In this document: positions 2,728 to 13,830 of the stretch, piece after piece
Position numbering within the stretch: position 1 is the first letter of the stretch
Layout: each line of letters starts with the position of its first letter
Assembly (NCBI GenBank): GCA_012730105.1
Contig: JAAYBJ010000299.1
Location: 1-14,811 of the forward strand
Reading direction: 5' to 3'
Length of the DNA: 14,811 nucleotides
Source: Candidatus Hydrogenedentota bacterium
Lineage (GTDB): Bacteria > Hydrogenedentota > Hydrogenedentia > Hydrogenedentales > CAITNO01
Program-made: the position numbers and the translations under genes
Notes under the pieces: generated by a model
Databases searched by the model: none
Seen by the model: the letters and a program-made list of their open reading frames with translations, nothing else
What the model was told of the DNA's origin: nothing

Positions 2728-3654
2728 ATGCTGATAGACGTAGCTGGTTTGTCCCATATCGGCCGCAAAAAAGCAAAGAACGAAGACAGTTTCGGCATTT
2801 TCGACACTACCCATCCAGGGCTGCAATTGTTTCAACAGGGCATGCTTATCGCTGTTGCGGACGGGTTGGGAGGGCACGTGGGGGGGGACATCGCCTCCAA
2901 ACTGGCGATTTCCATGATGAAGGATGTTCTGAAGGAGGGGCCCGTACCTGAAGAAGACCGCGCTTCGGAACGGGAGGACGCCTTTTATCTCTCCGCGATT
3001 GAAGGGGCCATGTTACGGGCGAACGACAGCATTTTTCAAACGAACAAGGACTTGGTTAAGGGGAATCTGCCCATGGGCACCACCCTGTGCACCGCCTTGC
3101 TCCGCCCCCGCCTGGCGTATTTGGGAAATGTGGGCGATTCCCGCGGATATCTGTTCCGAAACGGCGCTTTCGCGGCCAAGACCGAGGATCACAGCTGGGT
3201 GGACGAGCAGGTCAAACAGGGCTTGATGACCCAGGCAGCTGCCGAAAAGGACAACAGGAGAAACCTTGTTACCCGCTGTATCGGCACCCACGAAACGCTC
3301 GAAATCGACACGTATCAGTGGCCATTGAGACCCGATGACCAGGTGCTTATCTGCACCGATGGTCTCACCAACATGCTTTCGGACCCTGACATCGCCGAAA
3401 TTTTGCAGCGGCCGTTGACGGCGAAGGAAAAGGTCGATATCTTGGTCGATGCCGCGAACAAAAAAGGCGGTAAGGATAATATCACGGCGATATTGGCCTG
3501 GATAGACCCTGATCCCAAGGCACTGCGTGCCCTGCGCACCAAGTCCTGGCTGCGCAAAAGGGAAAGTAAAATCAAGACTACGGTACTGCTGACAGTCTTT
3601 GGGCTGTTTTGTTTTCTTGCCGGTTATTTTGCCTGCTTTTTCGGGACGCGTTAA
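2728..3654 (+). CDS. PP2C-family Ser/Thr protein phosphatase with C-terminal transmembrane anchor
   Basis: VAGLSHIGRKKAKNEDSF..IAVADGLGGHVGGDIAS..ICTDGLTNMLSD matches PP2C metal-binding motifs. The hydrophobic C-terminus TTVLLTVFGLFCFLAGYFACFF suggests a TM helix. RBS GGGAGA is 7 nt before the ATG. Confidence 0.85.
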   Translation: MLIDVAGLSHIGRKKAKNEDSFGIFDTTHPGLQLFQQGMLIAVADGLGGHVGGDIASKLAISMMKDVLKEGPVPEEDRASEREDAFYLSAIEGAMLRANDSIFQTNKDLVKGNLPMGTTLCTALLRPRLAYLGNVGDSRGYLFRNGAFAAKTEDHSWVDEQVKQGLMTQAAAEKDNRRNLVTRCIGTHETLEIDTYQWPLRPDDQVLICTDGLTNMLSDPDIAEILQRPLTAKEKVDILVDAANKKGGKDNITAILAWIDPDPKALRALRTKSWLRKRESKIKTTVLLTVFGLFCFLAGYFACFFGTR

Positions 3655-3780
3655 TTATTTTATGGCCGTCCATGATTCCTGGAATAGCCTGTCCAGCTAT
3701 CGGCCACGTTCGTTTTCTACCTAACATTAAGTAGTTACGCTTTAATGAAAAAACACGCCCCTGCTATCGCTATAGAAAAG

Positions 3781-3809
3781 TTGCTATTAATGCTAATCCA
3801 TGTTATAAT
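3781..3809 (+). promoter_or_regulatory. Near-consensus sigma70 promoter TTGCTA-17 nt-TATAAT driving the OMP gene (5' UTR ~140 nt)
   Basis: -35 TTGCTA at 3781-3786, 17-nt spacer, -10 TATAAT at 3804-3809, in an AT-rich 300-bp intergenic region. Confidence 0.6.
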
Positions 3810-3953
3810 CGCTACAATTTATCAGGAAATGTTGGAGGGTGCACTAGTTCGTTGCAGGTTTCGGGCAATCTTGTCTCGGTGCTATACTCTGGAAGCGAAA
3901 GGCATTTTTTTAAGTTATTAGAACTGTATTAACCAGGATGGAGGAAGTTTTTC

Positions 3954-5564
3954 ATGACATTCATACAGACAGTAGCAGGCGTGATGTTGAATTCAAAACG
4001 ACAGCCGTGGAACCGCGCCTGCAGCCTTGTTCTGCTTTGCGGTCTGCTTGTCATTTTCACGCTGGAGGCCGCCGCAGAGCTGACCCAGGTGTCTGTTGGT
4101 GGCGAGCTCCGTATACGCGGCCGCTGGTATATAAACGCATGGGAAGATGAGAAGCCCCTTGTGAACCGGATCAACAGCAGTTATCTCCCCTGGCGTCCCA
4201 TCGGATCTACGGGCACCAAGTCTTTGTTTAAATGGGACAGCGATGGAAAAGATTGGACCCGCTATGAATCCTCCGTCAAACTTAATTTCAAAGCGGATTT
4301 TACAAACAATGTGACAGCCTTCGTTGAACTTTATGACTGGTATGTTTTCGGCGAAAGTTTTCGGTCGAACTATCTCACGGGCGCGGATAATCGTGGTGAA
4401 GGTTTAGACACCGTGCAGTTGAACCAGGCATATATCGAAATGCGCCAGGTTTTTGACACACCGTTGACGCTGCGCGTAGGCCGCCAGGAACTTCTTTTCG
4501 GCAACGGCTGGCTGCTGTCAAACATGCTGACCCCTTCCCAGTATATAACCCATGACGCCATACGGCTCACCTATGCCGGAACGGACTTCACCGTGGACGC
4601 TTTTGCGGCGAAACACAACGCCAGTATGCAGCTGCTTGATGAACAGATCAACCTGTACGGCATTTACGGGACCTATAAGGGATTCCAGCCCTTGACCATG
4701 TCGGCGTATTGGATGTATGTGCATGATAACACGGACATTGAAACAGGCGAAGCCACATCTCTCGGCAGTTGGGTGAATTCGCTGCTCGGGAGGCATTTCG
4801 GTTCCACCAACCTGCATACGCTGGGCATACATTTCTTCGGCAAGCACGCCGGTTTTGACTACAGTCTGCAAACGGCCTACCAGTTTGGCGATGCGGAACA
4901 TATTGGCGCGATGTTTGGCAATGGCGGCATCTTCAACGGCGATACGGATGCCAAGTATGACAACTGGGGCATGGAAGCCATACTGGGCTACACGTTTGAA
5001 GATGTGAAATGGAAGCCGCGGCCTTACATCATGGGCGTTTATTTCCAAGGACAGGATAACCGCGACATCAGTTTCTGGGAATGGATGAATCCCTTCTACG
5101 AACCTGAAGCGAGCGTGTCTTTTAACCGTTTGTTCAGCGATAAGAATTATTCGTGGACCATCAATGACAACAGTTGGCTGTCTAATTTCATTCAGCTCAG
5201 CGCTGGTTTGGAACTCCAGCTGACCGAAAAAATACGCCTTTGTATGCGTGTGTCTAAAAACTGGGTGGATGAGCCCTTCAACCCGCCCAAGTCCATCAAA
5301 TTGGGCGGACGCCGCATTTATATCGCGCCGAACCTGAGTTTCTGGACCGATGAAGGCAGTGATGACCTGGGATGGGAAATCGCCAGTTATATTCTTTACA
5401 ACTATTCTGCAGACTTGTCCTTCGGGTTGTTCGGCAATGTGCTCTTCCCTGACGATGGTCTTACGGATGGCAGTTTTATGCATTTCTACGGCACTCAGTT
5501 CAGCGGCGGCACGGGTGACGACACTTCCGGGTATTTGTTCTGGATGGCTACCCTTAAGTTCTAA
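3954..5564 (+). CDS. Outer-membrane beta-barrel protein (porin/alginate-export-like), signal peptide, C-terminal Phe
   Basis: N-terminal signal peptide (KRQPWNRACSLVLLCGLLVIFTLEAAAE) and aromatic/Gly-rich alternating pattern. Terminal ...WMATLKF with C-terminal F is typical of BAM-dependent barrels. GGAGG RBS is 8 nt upstream. A strong terminator follows. Confidence 0.7.
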   Translation: MTFIQTVAGVMLNSKRQPWNRACSLVLLCGLLVIFTLEAAAELTQVSVGGELRIRGRWYINAWEDEKPLVNRINSSYLPWRPIGSTGTKSLFKWDSDGKDWTRYESSVKLNFKADFTNNVTAFVELYDWYVFGESFRSNYLTGADNRGEGLDTVQLNQAYIEMRQVFDTPLTLRVGRQELLFGNGWLLSNMLTPSQYITHDAIRLTYAGTDFTVDAFAAKHNASMQLLDEQINLYGIYGTYKGFQPLTMSAYWMYVHDNTDIETGEATSLGSWVNSLLGRHFGSTNLHTLGIHFFGKHAGFDYSLQTAYQFGDAEHIGAMFGNGGIFNGDTDAKYDNWGMEAILGYTFEDVKWKPRPYIMGVYFQGQDNRDISFWEWMNPFYEPEASVSFNRLFSDKNYSWTINDNSWLSNFIQLSAGLELQLTEKIRLCMRVSKNWVDEPFNPPKSIKLGGRRIYIAPNLSFWTDEGSDDLGWEIASYILYNYSADLSFGLFGNVLFPDDGLTDGSFMHFYGTQFSGGTGDDTSGYLFWMATLKF

Positions 5565-5874: not shown

Positions 5875-6243
5875 ATGGCAACCGTGTATCATGAGCCTGT
5901 TGAGGAACTTTCGCCGCAGGCAAGAAACATGCATCGGGCGTTAACAAGCCTGATTGAAGAATTGGAAGCGGTGGACTGGTATAACCAGCGGGCTGACGTT
6001 ACTGATGATGCTGCATTGAAGGCAATTCTTGAACACAATCGTGATGAAGAGATTGAGCATGCGGCTATGACCTTGGAATGGATCCGCCGCCAGATGCCCA
6101 AATTTGACCAGGAACTGAAGACGTACCTGTTTACCGCGGGTGACATAACCACGATAGAAGATGCCGGTGATGAGGTCGGGGGTGGAACTGCCCCCGCGAG
6201 ATCGGCCGGGCTCGGTATCGGTTCACTTAAGAAAGGACGTTAA
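5875..6243 (+). CDS. Encapsulated ferritin-like protein (EncFtn/Flp) cargo with C-terminal encapsulin targeting peptide
   Basis: Core LEHNRDEEIEHAAMTLEW matches the conserved EncFtn di-iron motif (EHNRDEE.EHAAM). The C-terminal tail ...GGGTAPARSAGLGIGSLKKGR fits the cargo-loading peptide consensus (GSLxIGSLK) after a Gly-rich linker. AGGAGG RBS precedes the start. The shell gene begins 2 nt after the stop. Confidence 0.85.
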   Translation: MATVYHEPVEELSPQARNMHRALTSLIEELEAVDWYNQRADVTDDAALKAILEHNRDEEIEHAAMTLEWIRRQMPKFDQELKTYLFTAGDITTIEDAGDEVGGGTAPARSAGLGIGSLKKGR

Positions 6244-6245
6244 CC

Positions 6246-7052
6246 ATGACAGACGCATTAAAACGTTTTTCCGCCCCTATTTCTTCGGCTGCTTGGAATG
6301 CTATTGACGATGCCGCTGCGGCGGTATTACGCGCCCGGTTGTCTGCAAGATCCGTGGTGGATTTTGTAGGTCCGCTTGGTTGGGAAACGGACGCCATAGG
6401 GTTGGGGCGTGCCAAACTGGTGGATAAGGGTGCTGTCGGCACGCCTGCATGGGGTGCCCGTCAATCTTTGCCGCTCATAGAGGTCCGTATCCCCTTTATT
6501 CTTAAATTAAGTGAACTGGAAAATATCGAGCGCGGCGCCAAAGACGTGGATCTGGCGCCACTGGAAGATGCGGCTAAGGCCATGGCGGCTTTTGAAGAAA
6601 AATCTCTGTATTCCGGGCTGTCTAAAGCCGGTATTACGGGCATTCTCGAGGCTGCCGATGCCAAGCCGATTACCGTTGCGGCCCAGCCGGAAGCGGTGGT
6701 GGATGCCGTGGCCGGGGCGATTGCCCAGTTGCGCGAAAATGATATTGACGGCCCTTATGCGTTTGTCGGTGGCACCAAGGCCTTTGGGGTCTTGAGCCGT
6801 ATTGTGCCGGGCGGTGGCACGGTGAATCGCGTGGTTGAGCAAATGACCGGTATGGCGCCCGCGTGGACTCCTGCCGTGGCGGGCGCGGCGATTGTTTCGG
6901 CGCGCGGTGGCGATTATGAGTTGTCCGTTGGCCAGGATATGGCGGTCGGATACGCGAAGCATGATGCCGAGAAAATCGAACTGTACCTTGTAGAAACTTT
7001 CACCTTCCGGGTCATTGAACCGCGGGCGGCGGTGGAAATAAAATTCAAGTAG
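6246..7052 (+). CDS. Family 1 encapsulin shell protein (linocin M18-like, HK97 fold)
   Basis: 268 aa. [103 protein letters not shown] is collinear with T. maritima encapsulin ([81 protein letters not shown]...LLKF). Confidence 0.9.
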
Positions 7053-10577: not shown

Positions 10578-10811
10578 AACGGCGCAGTTTCCCTTAAACG
10601 AGTTAATAACACAGTGCGGCCGAGCCATAACTAAAGGGCCTTTTTGTGACTTCTGCGCATTTTGTGGCAAGCAGTGTTTTCAAAAAAATCGCCACAAAGT
10701 CGCATAAAACACAAAAGATTCTGTTGGGCTAAGTTCTTTCGAATACTATTAAGAATTGACAGGACCGCAAAGTATTTCGTTCTTTAGACTCGCATTTTCT
10801 TCATCCGGTTT

Positions 10812-12665
10812 TTACTTCGCCAGTTTTTCGATGACCCTTGCGATACGGGTGCGCTGTTTTTCGATGGGCGCGGGATCCTTGGTATAGGTGCGTGCGTCGC
10901 GGGCAATGGCTTCGGGCACTTCCAGCAAGTTGCGGTAGCGGGCCTTTTCCTGTTCAGACAGGCCGTTAGCAGGATTGTCGAGTGCCTGTTTCAGCAGGAC
11001 GAGGTACTCGTAGTCCTCGACACCGTCGCGCAGCATTTCCCAGCGGATACTGTCCACCGGTCCGTCCAGCACGGGCCGGGCGGGCTGGGCGTCAGCCGCG
11101 GCCTCCGGCGGATACATGAAGCGACCGTCCCCGTTGCCCCAGGGCCGCTTTTCACCGGGCTTGGTGCCGTATCCGGTCATCCAGGACATGGTGTCCTCAT
11201 AGGGGTTCTGGGGCTGGTCCGGGTAGGCCATGCCCGTGGTCCAGAGGTTTGAGTGCCAGATCAGGATGCCTTCGATGCCGTACATCCACGTTTGCCAGAG
11301 CCAGGCGCGCAGGTCCGTGGCGGGGTGGTCGATGAACAGGCCAGGGTAGGGTTTCTTGGGGACCGTGCACACATACCACCAGAAATGTTCGCCGGCGTTC
11401 CGGCGCGCTTCCGCCTTTTCGTGGTTATAGGCGGAAATCAGGGGACACCACAGGTTCGGCCCGCCGATGAGGCCGGGCTCTATCTGTTCGGTGAGCATGA
11501 GCGCGATGTCGGGTACGGCCGCCTGGAGTTGCCGGAAGCCCTGCATGACCGCAGGGTAGTCCGACTCCGCCGGTTCGTCATACCAGTAGATATACGCTTC
11601 GTCCAGCAAGCCCTTTTCACGCAGATGCTCCTGCACGGTGTTGCCGTAGGTGTTGAAGGCCAGTTCATATTCGCGGGAGCCCGCCGGAAACCCTTGGTAT
11701 TCGCCCGCATTAATGCCGGGAATGCCGAGGCGGAAGGAATTGAAATGGAAGGTGTCAAAGGTGCGCTGCATTTCCCGGTCCCAGTCCGCCCAGTCGATTG
11801 CGGGGGTCAGGGCGTTTTCCTGGAACAGCCTGGCGTCTTCCGGGGATAGCCCGGCGCAGGCTTCCGGCGCGCGTTTGGTCCAGGACACGGCCGGGGAGAT
11901 GCCCGGGGTGGAACAATAGGGGGTGATGCGATGGTCGCGGAAACTTGCCCAGTACTTGTCCAGCACGAGGCGCCGCGCTTCGGGGTCGATGAGTCCCTGG
12001 TACTGGTACACGGTGTTCGCATTAAAGCCGAAGGCCGTGGTGCAGGAGGCGCGATCCGGCAGTTCAAAGCCGTACACCCGCACGCGCAGGGGGATATCGG
12101 CGGCAAAGCCGTTGGCCCGCAGGGCGATCGTTCCCTCATAAACGCCGGATGGAACCTCCTTGGGGGCATAGACCCGAATCCAAAGGGGCTGGTTCTTGTT
12201 CGCGCTGAGGGCGAGCGGCCCCTGGAACGGGGGCAGCGGATCCGGCCACGGCGCGGATGCGCCCCAGCCGTCCGAAGGACGCTCCACGGTCACATACCGC
12301 ACCCGCAGCACTTCCACGCACTCCGCCGGAATCTGGCTGCCGCCGGGGCCGGTCAACGGTCCCGCCGTTGCCGTAAACCCCGTGAGATCGCTGCAGGGTT
12401 GAACGACCAACTGCGCGGCTTCCCGTTCATTCCGTGCCAGTTCAATCCACACGGCTTTGCCCGTCCGGGTCGGCACGGCGCGGTCCCGGGCCACCTTCCA
12501 GCCTGAAGAGGCCCACCATAGCGCCACGGTGTCGGAACCGCTTTCCAGCCGTTCCCCATAGTCTTCTGAAAAAAGGATGCACGGTTCCGTGTGCCGAGCG
12601 CCGAAAGCCGCGCCGCCGAGCACTGCCAGAAAAACACATCCCCATAAGCAAGGTTTAGACAACAT
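10812..12665 (-). CDS. Secreted DUF4091/GH123-like putative glycoside hydrolase
   Basis: Signal peptide MLSKPCLWGCVFLAVLGGAAFGA. AGGAGA RBS is 7 nt upstream of ATG 12665. Trp-rich catalytic-domain-like region (YWYDEP, WWYVCTVP) resembles the DUF4091/GH123 family. The family assignment is from memory and moderate. Confidence 0.6.
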   Translation of the reverse strand: MLSKPCLWGCVFLAVLGGAAFGARHTEPCILFSEDYGERLESGSDTVALWWASSGWKVARDRAVPTRTGKAVWIELARNEREAAQLVVQPCSDLTGFTATAGPLTGPGGSQIPAECVEVLRVRYVTVERPSDGWGASAPWPDPLPPFQGPLALSANKNQPLWIRVYAPKEVPSGVYEGTIALRANGFAADIPLRVRVYGFELPDRASCTTAFGFNANTVYQYQGLIDPEARRLVLDKYWASFRDHRITPYCSTPGISPAVSWTKRAPEACAGLSPEDARLFQENALTPAIDWADWDREMQRTFDTFHFNSFRLGIPGINAGEYQGFPAGSREYELAFNTYGNTVQEHLREKGLLDEAYIYWYDEPAESDYPAVMQGFRQLQAAVPDIALMLTEQIEPGLIGGPNLWCPLISAYNHEKAEARRNAGEHFWWYVCTVPKKPYPGLFIDHPATDLRAWLWQTWMYGIEGILIWHSNLWTTGMAYPDQPQNPYEDTMSWMTGYGTKPGEKRPWGNGDGRFMYPPEAAADAQPARPVLDGPVDSIRWEMLRDGVEDYEYLVLLKQALDNPANGLSEQEKARYRNLLEVPEAIARDARTYTKDPAPIEKQRTRIARVIEKLAK

Positions 12666-12944
12666 AATCTTTCTCCTGGTTGAAAACAAGCCTTTATATA
12701 CTTGACCGGATTTCGGGAAGGAAAGATTCAAGAAATGAGCCATAAAGGTATTCAGGGATAGTCCTTCATGAGGCCCCGCAGTTTTCCCGTAAAGGAAGAA
12801 AATGTAGACGCGGCATTCTTGGCGCGTTGGAAGTGGCTGGAAGCCGTTTCTACATTCATTGAGTACAACATTTTTATTTACGGTGAGTTAGATAAATTAT
12901 CGAGGATGCCGCGGACAGGCACCAGCGCGTTATGGCGGGTCGTC

Positions 12945-12970
12945 TGGTTCCCAAATTCCTATTTGGGAAC
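12945..12970. repeat. Perfect hairpin GGTTCCCAAAT-tcct-ATTTGGGAACC (copy 1 of a GTTCCCAA palindrome family)
   Basis: Seen in sequence: 11-bp stem, 4-nt loop. Confidence 0.7.
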
Positions 12971-13032
12971 CGCCTTTGCACACGGTCAATACACATAGCA
13001 TTCCGGGAACCGTGGAGAAGGGACGAAAGAGA

Positions 13033-13082
13033 GAAATGGAATTTCAAGAGAGAGTGGGTTCCCAAATAGGAATTTGGGAACC
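13033..13082. repeat. 21-nt direct repeat GAAATGGAATTTCAAGAGAGA (second copy 13313-13333) immediately followed by hairpin GGTTCCCAAAT-agga-ATTTGGGAACC (inverted orientation of copy 1)
   Basis: Seen in sequence. The loop agga is the reverse complement of tcct in copy 1. The direct repeat recurs 280 bp downstream as GAAATAGAATTTCAAGAGAGA. Confidence 0.7.
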
Positions 13083-13210
13083 AGGGAAAACGAAAAACGT
13101 CGCGAAAGAAGTTTCGTGCAAAATTGCAGATGCTGGCGCAGTGGCTGCGGTACAATTGCATATTCCGCGCGCGAGCGCCTGATTTGGTCTATGCGAGCGG
13201 GTTGCTTTAC

Positions 13211-13241
13211 GCTCGTTCCCAAGTTGCACTTGGGAACGAGC
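13211..13241. repeat. Related perfect palindrome GCTCGTTCCCAAGT-tgca-ACTTGGGAACGAGC
   Basis: Seen in sequence: 14-bp stem sharing the GTTCCCAA/TTGGGAAC core with the other two hairpins. Confidence 0.65.
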
Positions 13242-13312
13242 TTGCCCGCGAAGTTTTACTTCGCAACCCTGGTAAAGCGCCGGAATACACCGGTCGGACC
13301 GTTGCGAAAAGG

Positions 13313-13399
13313 GAAATAGAATTTCAAGAGAGAAAAAACTCATAATTCGTAATCGAGTTTCTATTGCGTTTTTTGTCGATTACGAGTCACGAGCACGAG
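13313..13399. repeat. Second copy of 21-nt direct repeat (13313-13333) followed by dyad ATTCGTAATCGAG/TCGATTACGAG and the TCGATTACGAG-TCACGAGCACGAG motif shared with the glyA-upstream palindrome
   Basis: Seen in sequence: 11+13 nt identical to positions 359-369 and 376-388, with a 6-nt indel between the two blocks. Confidence 0.6.
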
Positions 13400-13491
13400 T
13401 CGCGAAGGCGAAATACTAGGGGCGTCGGGTTGCGGGCAACCATGCGTTGCTTATGTAACGCCTCCTCGGAATCCCAAGGTGGGCAACCCCG

Positions 13492-13830
13492 CTATTCCTC
13501 CGTCGGGGGCATGCGGAGTTGTTTTATTCTGCTGCGCAACTGCTTGCTGCGCAGGCGCTTGGCCTTTGCCGAACGGCTCGGCCGCGTGGGGACGCGTGGT
13601 TCCGGGACCTGCCGCAAAGCTTCCAACCGCCGCAACAGTTCTTCGTAGGCCGCTTCTTTATTCTTTAACTGTGACCGTGAACCGGTCCGCACCACCACAA
13701 TGCCGGTAGGCAAATGCCGCAGACGCACGGCCGAATCGGTCGTATTCTTCTTCTGTCCCCCGGGCCCATGGCTGCGGAAGAAGGTGTATTCCAAGTCTTG
13801 TTCTTGAGGTATGTTTGTGTCGGCACCCAT
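13492..13830 (-). CDS. arfB: Alternative ribosome-rescue factor ArfB (YaeJ-like peptidyl-tRNA hydrolase, GGQ motif)
   Basis: FFRSHGPGGQKKNTTDSAVRLRH GGQ domain, followed by a basic C-terminal tail RVPTRPSRSAKAKRLRSKQLRSRIKQLR matching the ArfB consensus tail (...RPTRPTRASKERRL..K..). Confidence 0.8.
   Translation of the reverse strand: MGADTNIPQEQDLEYTFFRSHGPGGQKKNTTDSAVRLRHLPTGIVVVRTGSRSQLKNKEAAYEELLRRLEALRQVPEPRVPTRPSRSAKAKRLRSKQLRSRIKQLRMPPTEE

Follow-up and report, generated by a model that had tools for sequence, protein, structure and literature searches.

The question raised by this locus is what fills the 826-bp gap (positions 12666-13491) between a glycoside hydrolase gene (GH123/DUF4091) and an arfB-type gene on contig JAAYBJ010000299.1 of a Candidatus Hydrogenedentota bacterium (assembly GCA_012730105.1), of which the whole stretch of 14,811 nt analysed is referred to here as the window. 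An initial annotation of this DNA had recorded palindromes and 21-nt repeats in the gap as separate features; they proved to be parts of one composite element that is present twice (E1 and E2). The reading that we favour, with moderate confidence, is that the region consists of two tandem copies, one intact and one truncated, of a non-coding, non-autonomous interspersed repeat resembling repetitive extragenic palindromic (REP) sequences, their hairpin-forming doublets (REPINs), and bacterial interspersed mosaic elements (BIMEs). Copies of the element are spread over many intergenic sites of one Hydrogenedentota clade, and the repeats appear to form a family not described before, though of a familiar class of selfish DNA. 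The gap would thus be explained as accumulated repeat DNA, not as a hidden gene or RNA.

E1 spans 141 bp (12944-13084) and, like E2, was assigned to the plus strand by its subterminal motif. It comprises a left terminal hairpin, CTGGTTCCCAAATTCCTATTTGGGAACC (12944-12971), with an 11-bp stem and the loop TCCT; an inner segment (12972-13026), delimited by alignment of copies; a conserved subterminal motif, AAGAGAGAAATGGAATTTCAAGAGAGA (13027-13053), identified by motif counts and covariation; and a right terminal hairpin, GGTTCCCAAATAGGAATTTGGGAACCAG (13057-13084), with the loop AGGA. Both hairpins were found by folding and by nhmmer, the right one together with the motif. The motif contains the 21-mer 13033-13053, which begins with a mini-hairpin supported by covariation (GAAAT-GGA-ATTTC, 13033-13045). 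The left and right ends form a perfect 28-nt terminal inverted repeat (100% complementary), loop and CT/AG flanks included, in agreement with the initial description of two 26-mers in opposite orientation that differ in the loops TCCT and AGGA. All three palindromes share the core GTTCCCAA/TTGGGAAC. Two of them lie where they had been placed, GGTTCCCAAATAGGAATTTGGGAACC at 13057-13082 and GCTCGTTCCCAAGTTGCACTTGGGAACGAGC at 13211-13241, and the first, GGTTCCCAAATTCCTATTTGGGAACC, occupies 12946-12971, having been placed 1 nt early (12945-12970). The full palindrome pattern gave two matches (0.00 expected) and GTTCCCAA seven (0.71 expected), six of them in this region. The reported 21-nt direct repeat (13033-13053 and 13313-13333; two matches versus none expected) was likewise recovered; it extends to 27 nt at 89% identity (13027-13053 and 13307-13333) and makes up the inner portion of each copy's right end. 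The hairpins are inverted and irregularly spaced (111 and 157 nt), consistent with the earlier statement that the array is not a clustered regularly interspaced short palindromic repeat (CRISPR) locus.

The homology bounds of E1, CTGG...CCAG, match those of copies at L103, L084, L112, L034, L081, L132, L096 and others (L-numbers are labels of contig loci retrieved in the repeat searches), among which L103, L084, and L112 are its closest relatives (86-87% identity). Since homology runs from CTGG to CCAG and the flanks are unrelated, E1 is an intact copy. E2 (13209-13334) has the same orientation and, according to the alignment, belongs to another subfamily, with relatives of the L107, L123, and L124 type, and is without the right hairpin. 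Its variant left hairpin, hp3 (GCTCGTTCCCAAGTTGCACTTGGGAACGAGC, 13211-13241), was found as an inverted repeat and by DNA folding and has a 14-bp stem; its partner is a mini-hairpin on the minus strand, GCGAAGT-TTT-ACTTCGC (13248-13264), detected by nhmmer and through equivalents elsewhere. The left end of this second subfamily consists of the hairpin CTCGTTCCCAA(A/G)T..TTGGGAACG followed by a mini-hairpin GCGAAGT-N3-ACTTCGC; an equivalent of the latter, GCAAAGT-TGA-ACTTTGC, adjoins hairpins in L006, L041, L048, and L060, and an hp3-type variant also adjoins the motif in copies of the SKQZ01 metagenome-assembled genome (MAG). Together, hp3 and its minus-strand mini-hairpin are the left-end counterpart of the motif-plus-hairpin module. 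At the other end of E2 stands its copy of the motif, AAAAGGGAAATAGAATTTCAAGAGAGA (13307-13333), identified as a direct repeat, by motif counts, and by nhmmer, with no hairpin after it; the sequence beyond 13333 is unrelated to any other copy.

An nhmmer profile of the module matched the window at 13031-13084 on the plus strand (motif plus hairpin, E = 5.5e-20), 12974-12941 on the minus strand (left hairpin, E = 3e-10), 13263-13211, also on the minus strand (E = 1.2e-7 over model positions 6-59), and 13310-13333 on the plus strand. From these four matches we infer an ancestral element with a long inverted end on each side, composed of the main hairpin, about 10 nt, and a mini-hairpin. Folded as single-stranded DNA, the hairpins reached -11.4 to -16.7 kcal/mol (left hairpin -11.4, z = -7.4; hp3 -16.7). 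In the minimum free energy fold of E1 the two ends pair with each other (-69 kcal/mol, z = -6.6), and the complete copy can fold from end to end.

A k-mer test across genomes bore out the initial suggestion of an undescribed REP-like family, with dispersed copies in four MAGs and about 46 metagenome contigs. In one genome per species (596 Gb), GGTTCCCAAATNNNNATTTGGGAACC was found at 72 loci, compared with about 0.07 chance matches by our own estimate. Of these, 23 lie on contigs of four Hydrogenedentota MAGs (UR.bin34, RA.bin58, CSSed162cmA_463, and P2IB.85), with 7-10 copies in each of three and one in the fourth, counted as exact matches in fragmentary draft contigs only. In 147 kb of loci, 94 exact half-sites were counted versus 4.5 expected. 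A metagenome scan for the exact 26-nt palindrome added 55 loci, about 46 of the composite-element type. In most cases the palindrome is accompanied by the 21-nt motif in a constant arrangement. All copies are intergenic, and the genes around them may be convergent, divergent, or in tandem. No match to the family was present in phage, plasmid, and viral collections, and the literature search returned no mention of the palindrome in a bacterial context or of a repeat family in Hydrogenedentes.

In the orientation of the window, the element reads CTG-GTTCCCAA-AT-TCCT-AT-TTGGGAAC-C, followed by an inner segment of 44-85 nt and then by (A)GAGAAATRGAATTTCAAGAGAGAG, NN, and G-GTTCCCAA-AT-AGGA-AT-TTGGGAAC-CAG. 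Each end is a perfectly paired 11-bp hairpin, GGTTCCCAAAT-N4-ATTTGGGAACC, with a second small hairpin about 10 nt off. An intact GTTCCCAA hairpin stands exactly 4 nt after the motif in 40 of 48 motif instances, and in those 40 the loop on the motif strand is purine-rich (AGGA, GGGA, GAGA, CGGA, ATGA, or AGCA). Full copies from unrelated loci measure 100-141 bp and share homology from CTGG to CCAG, which is sometimes followed by RGAAAA, between unrelated flanks. Their ends are inverted, with start-to-start spacings of 70-75 and 109-111 nt (70-111 nt overall); in short copies (L071, L094) the inner segment is 41 nt shorter. Copies within one MAG are 86-91% identical. The hairpins and motif are nearly invariant, in contrast to the inner segment, which is kept only within a subfamily (L103, L084, L112/L049) and is strongly divergent between subfamilies. 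Inverted doublets, their spacer being less conserved, are frequent, as are singlets, solo hairpins, and solo modules. Like BIMEs, the repeats are mosaics built from more than one motif family: a further repeated module, ..CATGAGCCYRTGGCTCACCCTGAAACCACGAAAATG-N8-ATTTTCGAAGCAG, is often found directly beside the hairpin elements (L049 4140-4205; L071 2016-2085; L112 4459-4530; L094, L101, L024; L139 ~3390-3440).

The sharply bounded terminal inverted repeats, the length of 100-141 bp, the many copies, and the division into several subfamilies would also suit a classical MITE (a miniature transposable element with inverted repeats), whose 28-30-nt terminal inverted repeats would be bound as duplex DNA by the DDE transposase of a related full-length insertion sequence (IS) and moved by a cut-and-paste or copy-and-paste route. 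These genomes do hold elements bounded by terminal inverted repeats that make 8-9-bp duplications. However, no flanking direct repeat stands beside CTGG...CCAG in about 12 aligned full copies, and neither an IS with CTGGTTCCCAAAT... termini nor a DDE transposase was found in the searched flanking DNA around known copies (about 0.5 Mb, as in all our searches for transposases, recombinases, and ISs). Because neither a duplication nor, in that DNA, a parent IS was found, we regard a DDE-type MITE as unlikely. Both termini, moreover, form perfect hairpins of their own, each accompanied by a second one, and hairpins or modules often stand alone, which fits structure-specific recognition better than recognition of duplex ends.

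Base pairing within the ends is maintained. The closing pair of the hairpin is of the Watson-Crick type in 85 of 85 distinct instances (G-C in 66, C-G in 19), and at an inner position A-T is replaced by G-C. In a 31-sequence alignment of the module, three pairs vary in both partners and none in a single partner, the mini-hairpin covaries from AU to GC in five sequences, and the covariation score is 0.102 versus 0.038 in shuffles, with pairing collapsing when the partners are slid. These compensatory changes, which probably represent few independent events, show that dyad symmetry matters, and they do not discriminate whether it does so in DNA, in RNA, or for a dimeric protein. They would be expected if the modules served the host as RNA signals (terminators, 3'-end stabilisers, small RNAs) or as operators of a global regulator, and such a function would also accord with hairpins and a motif far better conserved than the spacer and with RNA folds at z = -6.6 to -8.9. 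It would accord, too, with the placement of E1 and E2 downstream of arfB, on its strand, where a hairpin is followed by a C/U-rich tract. Yet compensatory change is equally expected for DNA hairpins, and the 100-140 nt of shared sequence with sharp ends far exceeds what an operator or terminator needs. The motif strand has no orientation bias with respect to neighbouring genes: on one side 20 copies point toward the gene and 16 away from it, and on the other side the counts are 23 and 13 (from rough gene calls that include some orthologous copies). A consensus scan of 12500-13700 for sigma-70 promoters and intrinsic terminators gave no site, and no Rfam family matched the window at the gathering threshold, the only sub-threshold match being a spurious plant miRNA precursor (E = 0.064). 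The neighbouring genes share no function: they encode NPCBM, FGE-sulfatase, esterase, AbiEii, DUF2851, sigma-70/CarboxypepD_reg, TPR, and beta-helix proteins, and a regulon or operator was rejected for want of anything in common among them. We therefore hold a host function as the origin of the modules to be decidedly improbable. The cluster of structured small RNAs or protein-binding sites proposed initially found no support in orientation, promoters or terminators, Rfam, or coherent neighbours, and operator, terminator, and small RNA roles would be conceivable only as secondary effects. Readings of the right arms by eye as extracytoplasmic function-type (GGAAC-N16-CGTC) or sigma-54 promoters were dropped because each fits one copy only.

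The REP, REPIN, and BIME sequences of Pseudomonas, Escherichia coli, and Stenotrophomonas, which occur with REP-associated tyrosine transposases (RAYTs; Y1, IS200-like), are likewise short extragenic palindromes in many copies (PMC3116915, PMC2817692, PMC3333891). REPINs pair two inverted copies of an extragenic palindrome around a spacer that is less conserved, and singlets accompany them; the doublets of Pseudomonas fluorescens were modelled as 71- and 110-bp segments (PMC3116915), close to the two spacing classes given above; there as here, the inverted doublet would be the replicative unit. Also common to both are singlets, tandem clusters, mosaics, compensatory maintenance of the palindrome, and no apparent target-site duplication. 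REPs are, in addition, documented insertion targets of ISs, and the palindromes described here are likewise targets for other mobile elements (PMC1525189). The present family differs in its host phylum, Hydrogenedentota, in its perfect, AT-containing stem with a 4-nt loop, and in the second small hairpin at a fixed distance on each end. A 5' head, GT(A/G)G, adjoins the REP palindrome (PMC2817692), whereas here a head is not clearly present, and no RAYT gene flanked by these hairpins was found in the flanking DNA searched, the RAYT-like genes recovered being flanked by a different hairpin.

In the REPIN-like reading, the element would most likely spread as single-stranded DNA, an HUH/Y1 transposase of the RAYT or IS200/IS605 type binding the hairpins in trans and cutting beside them, which would leave no target-site duplication. 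This route is suggested by the hairpin ends with their fixed subterminal motif, the lack of duplications, and the occurrence of Y1 transposases in these organisms. Should the copies influence the neighbouring genes, for instance by stabilising or ending the arfB transcript or by insulating the promoter of GH123, this would be a side effect.

The hairpins also mark points at which the locus has changed. Strain L133 (97% identical) follows the window from GH123 through E1 to the middle of hp3 and then continues into unrelated sequence, and L003, which carries arfB, ends just past the same point of hp3, approached from the other side; the junctions read GTTCCCAAGTGCAACT followed by CTTGTCA... and ...TGTGGGTAATGACAAG followed by AGTGCAACTTGGGAAC. 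The element in the hp3 loop of L003/L133 has 16-nt terminal inverted repeats, CTTGTCATTACCCACA/TGTGGGTAATGACAAG; the central 9 nt of the site (L003 end plus L133 1-52, equivalent to window 13226-13230) are duplicated. The same termini bound insertions of 362 bp (L119 1484-1845) and 432 bp (L115 514-945) in the centre of another GTTCCCAA hairpin, with the duplication ATGGGAAT. Wherever both junctions are present (L115, L119, and hp3 from L003 plus L133), the central 8-9 nt are duplicated, and the duplicated centres differ between targets (ATGGGAAT, AGTGCAACT); single termini of this type abut hairpin halves in L063 and L081. As insertions occurred at several independent hairpins, the GTTCCCAA palindromes are preferred landing sites. 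IS1397, ISKpn1, and ISPpu9/10 insert in REP loops in the same way (PMC1525189, PMC12288879), a likeness that concerns what lands in the palindromes and not the palindromes themselves; the element found here differs in bringing a Y1 gene, hairpins of its own, and an 8-9-bp duplication.

Half-sites were also duplicated in tandem (L018/L095, L025, L089, L108, L116, L129). At one orthologous locus the hairpin is simple in L093 (4605-4645) and L104 (262-303), its left half is duplicated in L042 (2612-2665), and it is nested in a larger perfect palindrome with a 29-nt stem in L037 (3577-3645), L086 (1059-1133), and L087 (3870-3944), a series that indicates rapid symmetric expansion at the hairpin. 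Extruded hairpins are hot spots of rearrangement, which includes loop insertion of the CTTGTCATTACCCACA/TGTGGGTAATGACAAG element and half-site duplication or nesting. Assemblies break inside the elements as well: L002 ends at window position 13038, L091 starts at 13027, L003 and L005 end at hp3, and many other copies stand at contig ends. Elsewhere on L037, a 1.5-kb insertion relative to L042 (L037 4773-6305; L042 ~3859) carries a RES toxin/Xre-MbcA-ParS antitoxin pair, with a GTTCC-AAATTCCTATTTGGGAAC hairpin at its start and the flanking direct repeat AGCGT.

In L081 (270-1070), an inserted terminus is followed by a gene for a 151-aa Y1 (RAYT-like) transposase with HVH and GY motifs (Pfam PF01797 at 433-1035, E = 1.6e-21). 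A Y1-transposase element with terminal inverted repeats and an 8-9-bp duplication was unexpected. The gene is bracketed by inverted CCCAGGGT(T/A)GCGG-N4-CCGC(T/A)ACCCTGGG hairpins, and its homologues (L139-L148, some labelled RayT by the Joint Genome Institute) are all flanked by CCCAGGGT-type hairpins; the GTTCCCAA palindromes are not the immediate flanking repeats of this transposase. One homologue, L148, lies on a contig of the MAG RA.bin58, which carries the repeat family, and in L139 the Y1 unit begins directly after a GTTCACAA-plus-loop half-site. That unit (L139 2501-3420) falls within a CRISPR-Cas locus, with a Cas_GSU0053-type gene cluster on one side and cas4-cas1/cas2 on the other; after it come about four tandem copies of a sequence of some 75-80 nt.

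The joining of foreign DNA exactly at the borders of an 8-nt centre would also be compatible with tyrosine-recombinase sites, in which the palindrome would be a core site with 10-11-nt arms around an asymmetric centre and the inverted pair an invertible switch or a dif-module-like cassette. Arms, centre, and inverted pairs do fit, and Xer/dif core sites, pdif modules, and invertible promoters have identical arms, an asymmetric centre, and inverted pairs too. Further agreement comes from Bacillales, where an identical palindrome, GGTTCCCAAAT-N4-ATTTGGGAACC, occurs once per genome at about 41 genome loci, mostly of Planococcaceae (Psychrobacillus, Kurthia, Rummeliibacillus, Viridibacillus, Solibacillus, and others; among L008-L077), and on nine metagenome contigs (including L085, L088, L100, L105, L106, L111, L117, and L126). 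At 39 of the 41 loci the palindrome stands about 35-45 nt upstream of a gene for a Xer-like tyrosine recombinase of 315-330 aa (for example L008, site 4176-4201 and gene 4238-5185; L015, site 3577-3602 and gene 3641-4594), which matches the models for XerD, XerC, and XerA, though with scores under the cut-offs. All 22 bases of the arms are exact while the protein falls to 58% identity, only the central 4 nt vary, and the palindrome overlaps an apparent extended -10 promoter of the recombinase gene. It looks, from this arrangement, like the recombinase's own site or operator.

For the Hydrogenedentota copies, however, no tyrosine recombinase was found in the flanks (a few kb at most) of any of them, and the sites are dispersed over the chromosome, where dozens of active ones would be hazardous. 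No inversion was seen: alignments ran collinear through the element in 13 of 13 comparisons from seven orthologous sets, mostly between near-identical strains and made on consensus assemblies, in which a minority orientation could go unseen. The duplicated centres differ, unlike in an overlap-region exchange, and the 21-nt motif and second hairpin have no counterpart in Planococcaceae. We consider recombinase sites very unlikely as an explanation of the region. We give equally little credence to the wider proposal that the palindrome, by itself or together with its mini-hairpin, is the recognition site of a conserved protein shared across phyla, likeliest the XerA/XerD-like tyrosine recombinase whose gene follows it in all Planococcaceae genomes examined; the elements of Hydrogenedentota, Thiotrichaceae, and Zixibacteria would then be miniature mobile or rearranging elements driven by this protein and not by a transposase. 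In a variant of that proposal, the hairpin would be a docking site nicked by the Y1-transposase unit in both extruded loops, which would account for the duplicated centre. The palindrome did not fit the consensus sequences of integron attC and dif sites.

Several observations weigh against the REPIN-like reading. A cognate transposase gene flanked by GTTCCCAA hairpins was not found within the flanking DNA searched, and the Y1 genes that were recovered (L081, L139-L148) carry the different CCCAGGGT...ACCCTGGG hairpin. All-versus-all clustering of 430 flanking open reading frames (ORFs), looking for a recurrent neighbouring transposase or recombinase, gave orthologous sets only, and no such enzyme was among the 65 ORFs inspected within 350 nt of hairpins. 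Searches of the Hydrogenedentota-type loci by tblastn had no match either with the Planococcaceae recombinase or with IS200 TnpA, the latter an approximate query sequence. The GT(A/G)G head has only a plurality of GTGG on the motif side: the four bases before GTTCCCAA there are mostly GTGG or GTGC, also GCCG, GGGG, GCAG, GAGG, and AGGG, and on the outer side CTGG. Transposition and the lack of target-site duplication were judged by comparing copy with copy, not filled with empty sites; GH123 relatives at 75-77% identity have no hairpins but offer no clean empty-site comparison because their upstream neighbours differ. The strong conservation of the hairpins and motif relative to the inner segment could reflect a host function, and the tyrosine-recombinase context in Planococcaceae points to a different enzyme class.

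Two further groups of elements invite comparison. Correia elements duplicate a TA target, and their terminal sequences are unrelated to those described here, where no duplication was seen and each terminus is itself a hairpin. In IS200/IS605 elements, whose ends are not inverted repeats, the left and right hairpins are oriented alike on the active strand, whereas here the ends are perfect inverted repeats. Like the present family, the Correia elements (CREE/NEMIS) of Neisseria, ERIC, and RUP are intergenic elements of about 100-150 bp with inverted ends of about 26-30 nt, whose whole transcript can fold as a long hairpin and whose long and short forms differ by an internal deletion (review PMC3184786). 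With IS200/IS605 elements and their miniature derivatives, the palindrome-associated transposable elements, the family shares recognition features that are subterminal hairpins and not duplex ends, a conserved sequence set at a constant distance from the foot of the hairpin, and no target-site duplication (PMC3333891).

Exact hairpins also turned up in contigs that binning had assigned to Thiotrichaceae (with two on a single 252-kb contig), Thiothrix, Methylobacter, Nitrospirales, Zixibacteria, and Bacteroidetes, at the sites L007 3640-3790, L021 1494, L066 6338, L026 1942, L073 561-760, L019 5318, and L009 1418. On L007 (Thiotrichaceae, 42% GC) a GAAATGGAATTTC mini-hairpin stands 9 nt before a GTTCCCAA hairpin, with a second hairpin 100 nt off in the opposite orientation, and L073 (Zixibacteria) has an inverted doublet. 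Given the near-copies in Thiotrichaceae and Zixibacteria, the end module at least, if not the whole family, extends beyond a single phylum, with binning errors possible for all such contigs; the copies would represent either cross-phylum spread or mis-binning. L070 ('Bacteroidales'), with an SKQZ01-type element, may be mis-binned because it comes from the same sediment series as that element.

The analysis adds a well-defined REPIN/MITE-like family to the candidate phylum Hydrogenedentota. The repeats break short-read assemblies (four independent assemblies end in E1 or hp3), and the family may be useful for marking the lineage and for guiding long-read finishing. It also leaves two side leads, hairpin-loop targeting by the CTTGTCATTACCCACA/TGTGGGTAATGACAAG element and the palindrome common to the Planococcaceae Xer-like locus; if both were connected, the family would offer a tractable case of a protein-DNA recognition module common to distant phyla.

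The genes on either side are those named initially, on the minus strand: GH123/DUF4091 (10812-12665; Pfam PF13320 and PF22680), downstream of the repeats, and an RF-1 domain (ArfB-type) gene (13492-13830; PF00472 and a gene call), upstream of them. The longest GH123 ORF starts at 12743, but translation probably begins at the ATG at 12665, which is preceded by the ribosome-binding site AGGAGA and opens a signal peptide; public gene calls also start there (617 aa, as called in L001), which makes the non-coding gap 826 bp. GH123 protein relatives are labelled Candidatus Hydrogenedentes. The initial remarks that the gap is AT-richer than its flanks (GC 0.47-0.50 versus 0.60-0.68), without a credible ORF, and free of recognisable known non-coding RNA all held: ORFs in it reach at most 99 aa, eight of 68-99 aa had no Pfam match at E <= 0.01, and a tRNA/tmRNA search of the region returned nothing. 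The degraded pseudogene considered at that stage was rejected, no Pfam homology being detected for any ORF of the region. The additional dyad noted in 12797-12857, upstream of GH123, was located as AATGTAGACGCGGC...GCCGTTTCTACATT (12801-12856, strand unassigned; arms 12801-12814 and 12843-12856, 86% complementary); its fold has z = -3.8, it lies outside the repeat family, and it had no match at any other retrieved locus. An imperfect 18-nt inverted repeat, CTCATAATTCGTAATCGA/TCGATTACGAGTCACGAG (13339-13393), followed by a T-run on the minus strand, lies about 100 nt downstream of the arfB stop and just before E2 on that strand; it had no match elsewhere and could be the arfB terminator. Two other intergenic stretches match unrelated loci, namely 103-163 (L056 5211-5261 at 92%, L096, and L093) and 10661-10720 (L107 7940-7999 at 80%), so further small dispersed repeats are present in the window. 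Finally, 6 kb upstream (5875-7052) there is an encapsulin operon that comprises genes for an EncFtn-like cargo and a Linocin_M18 shell; it is unrelated to the repeats.

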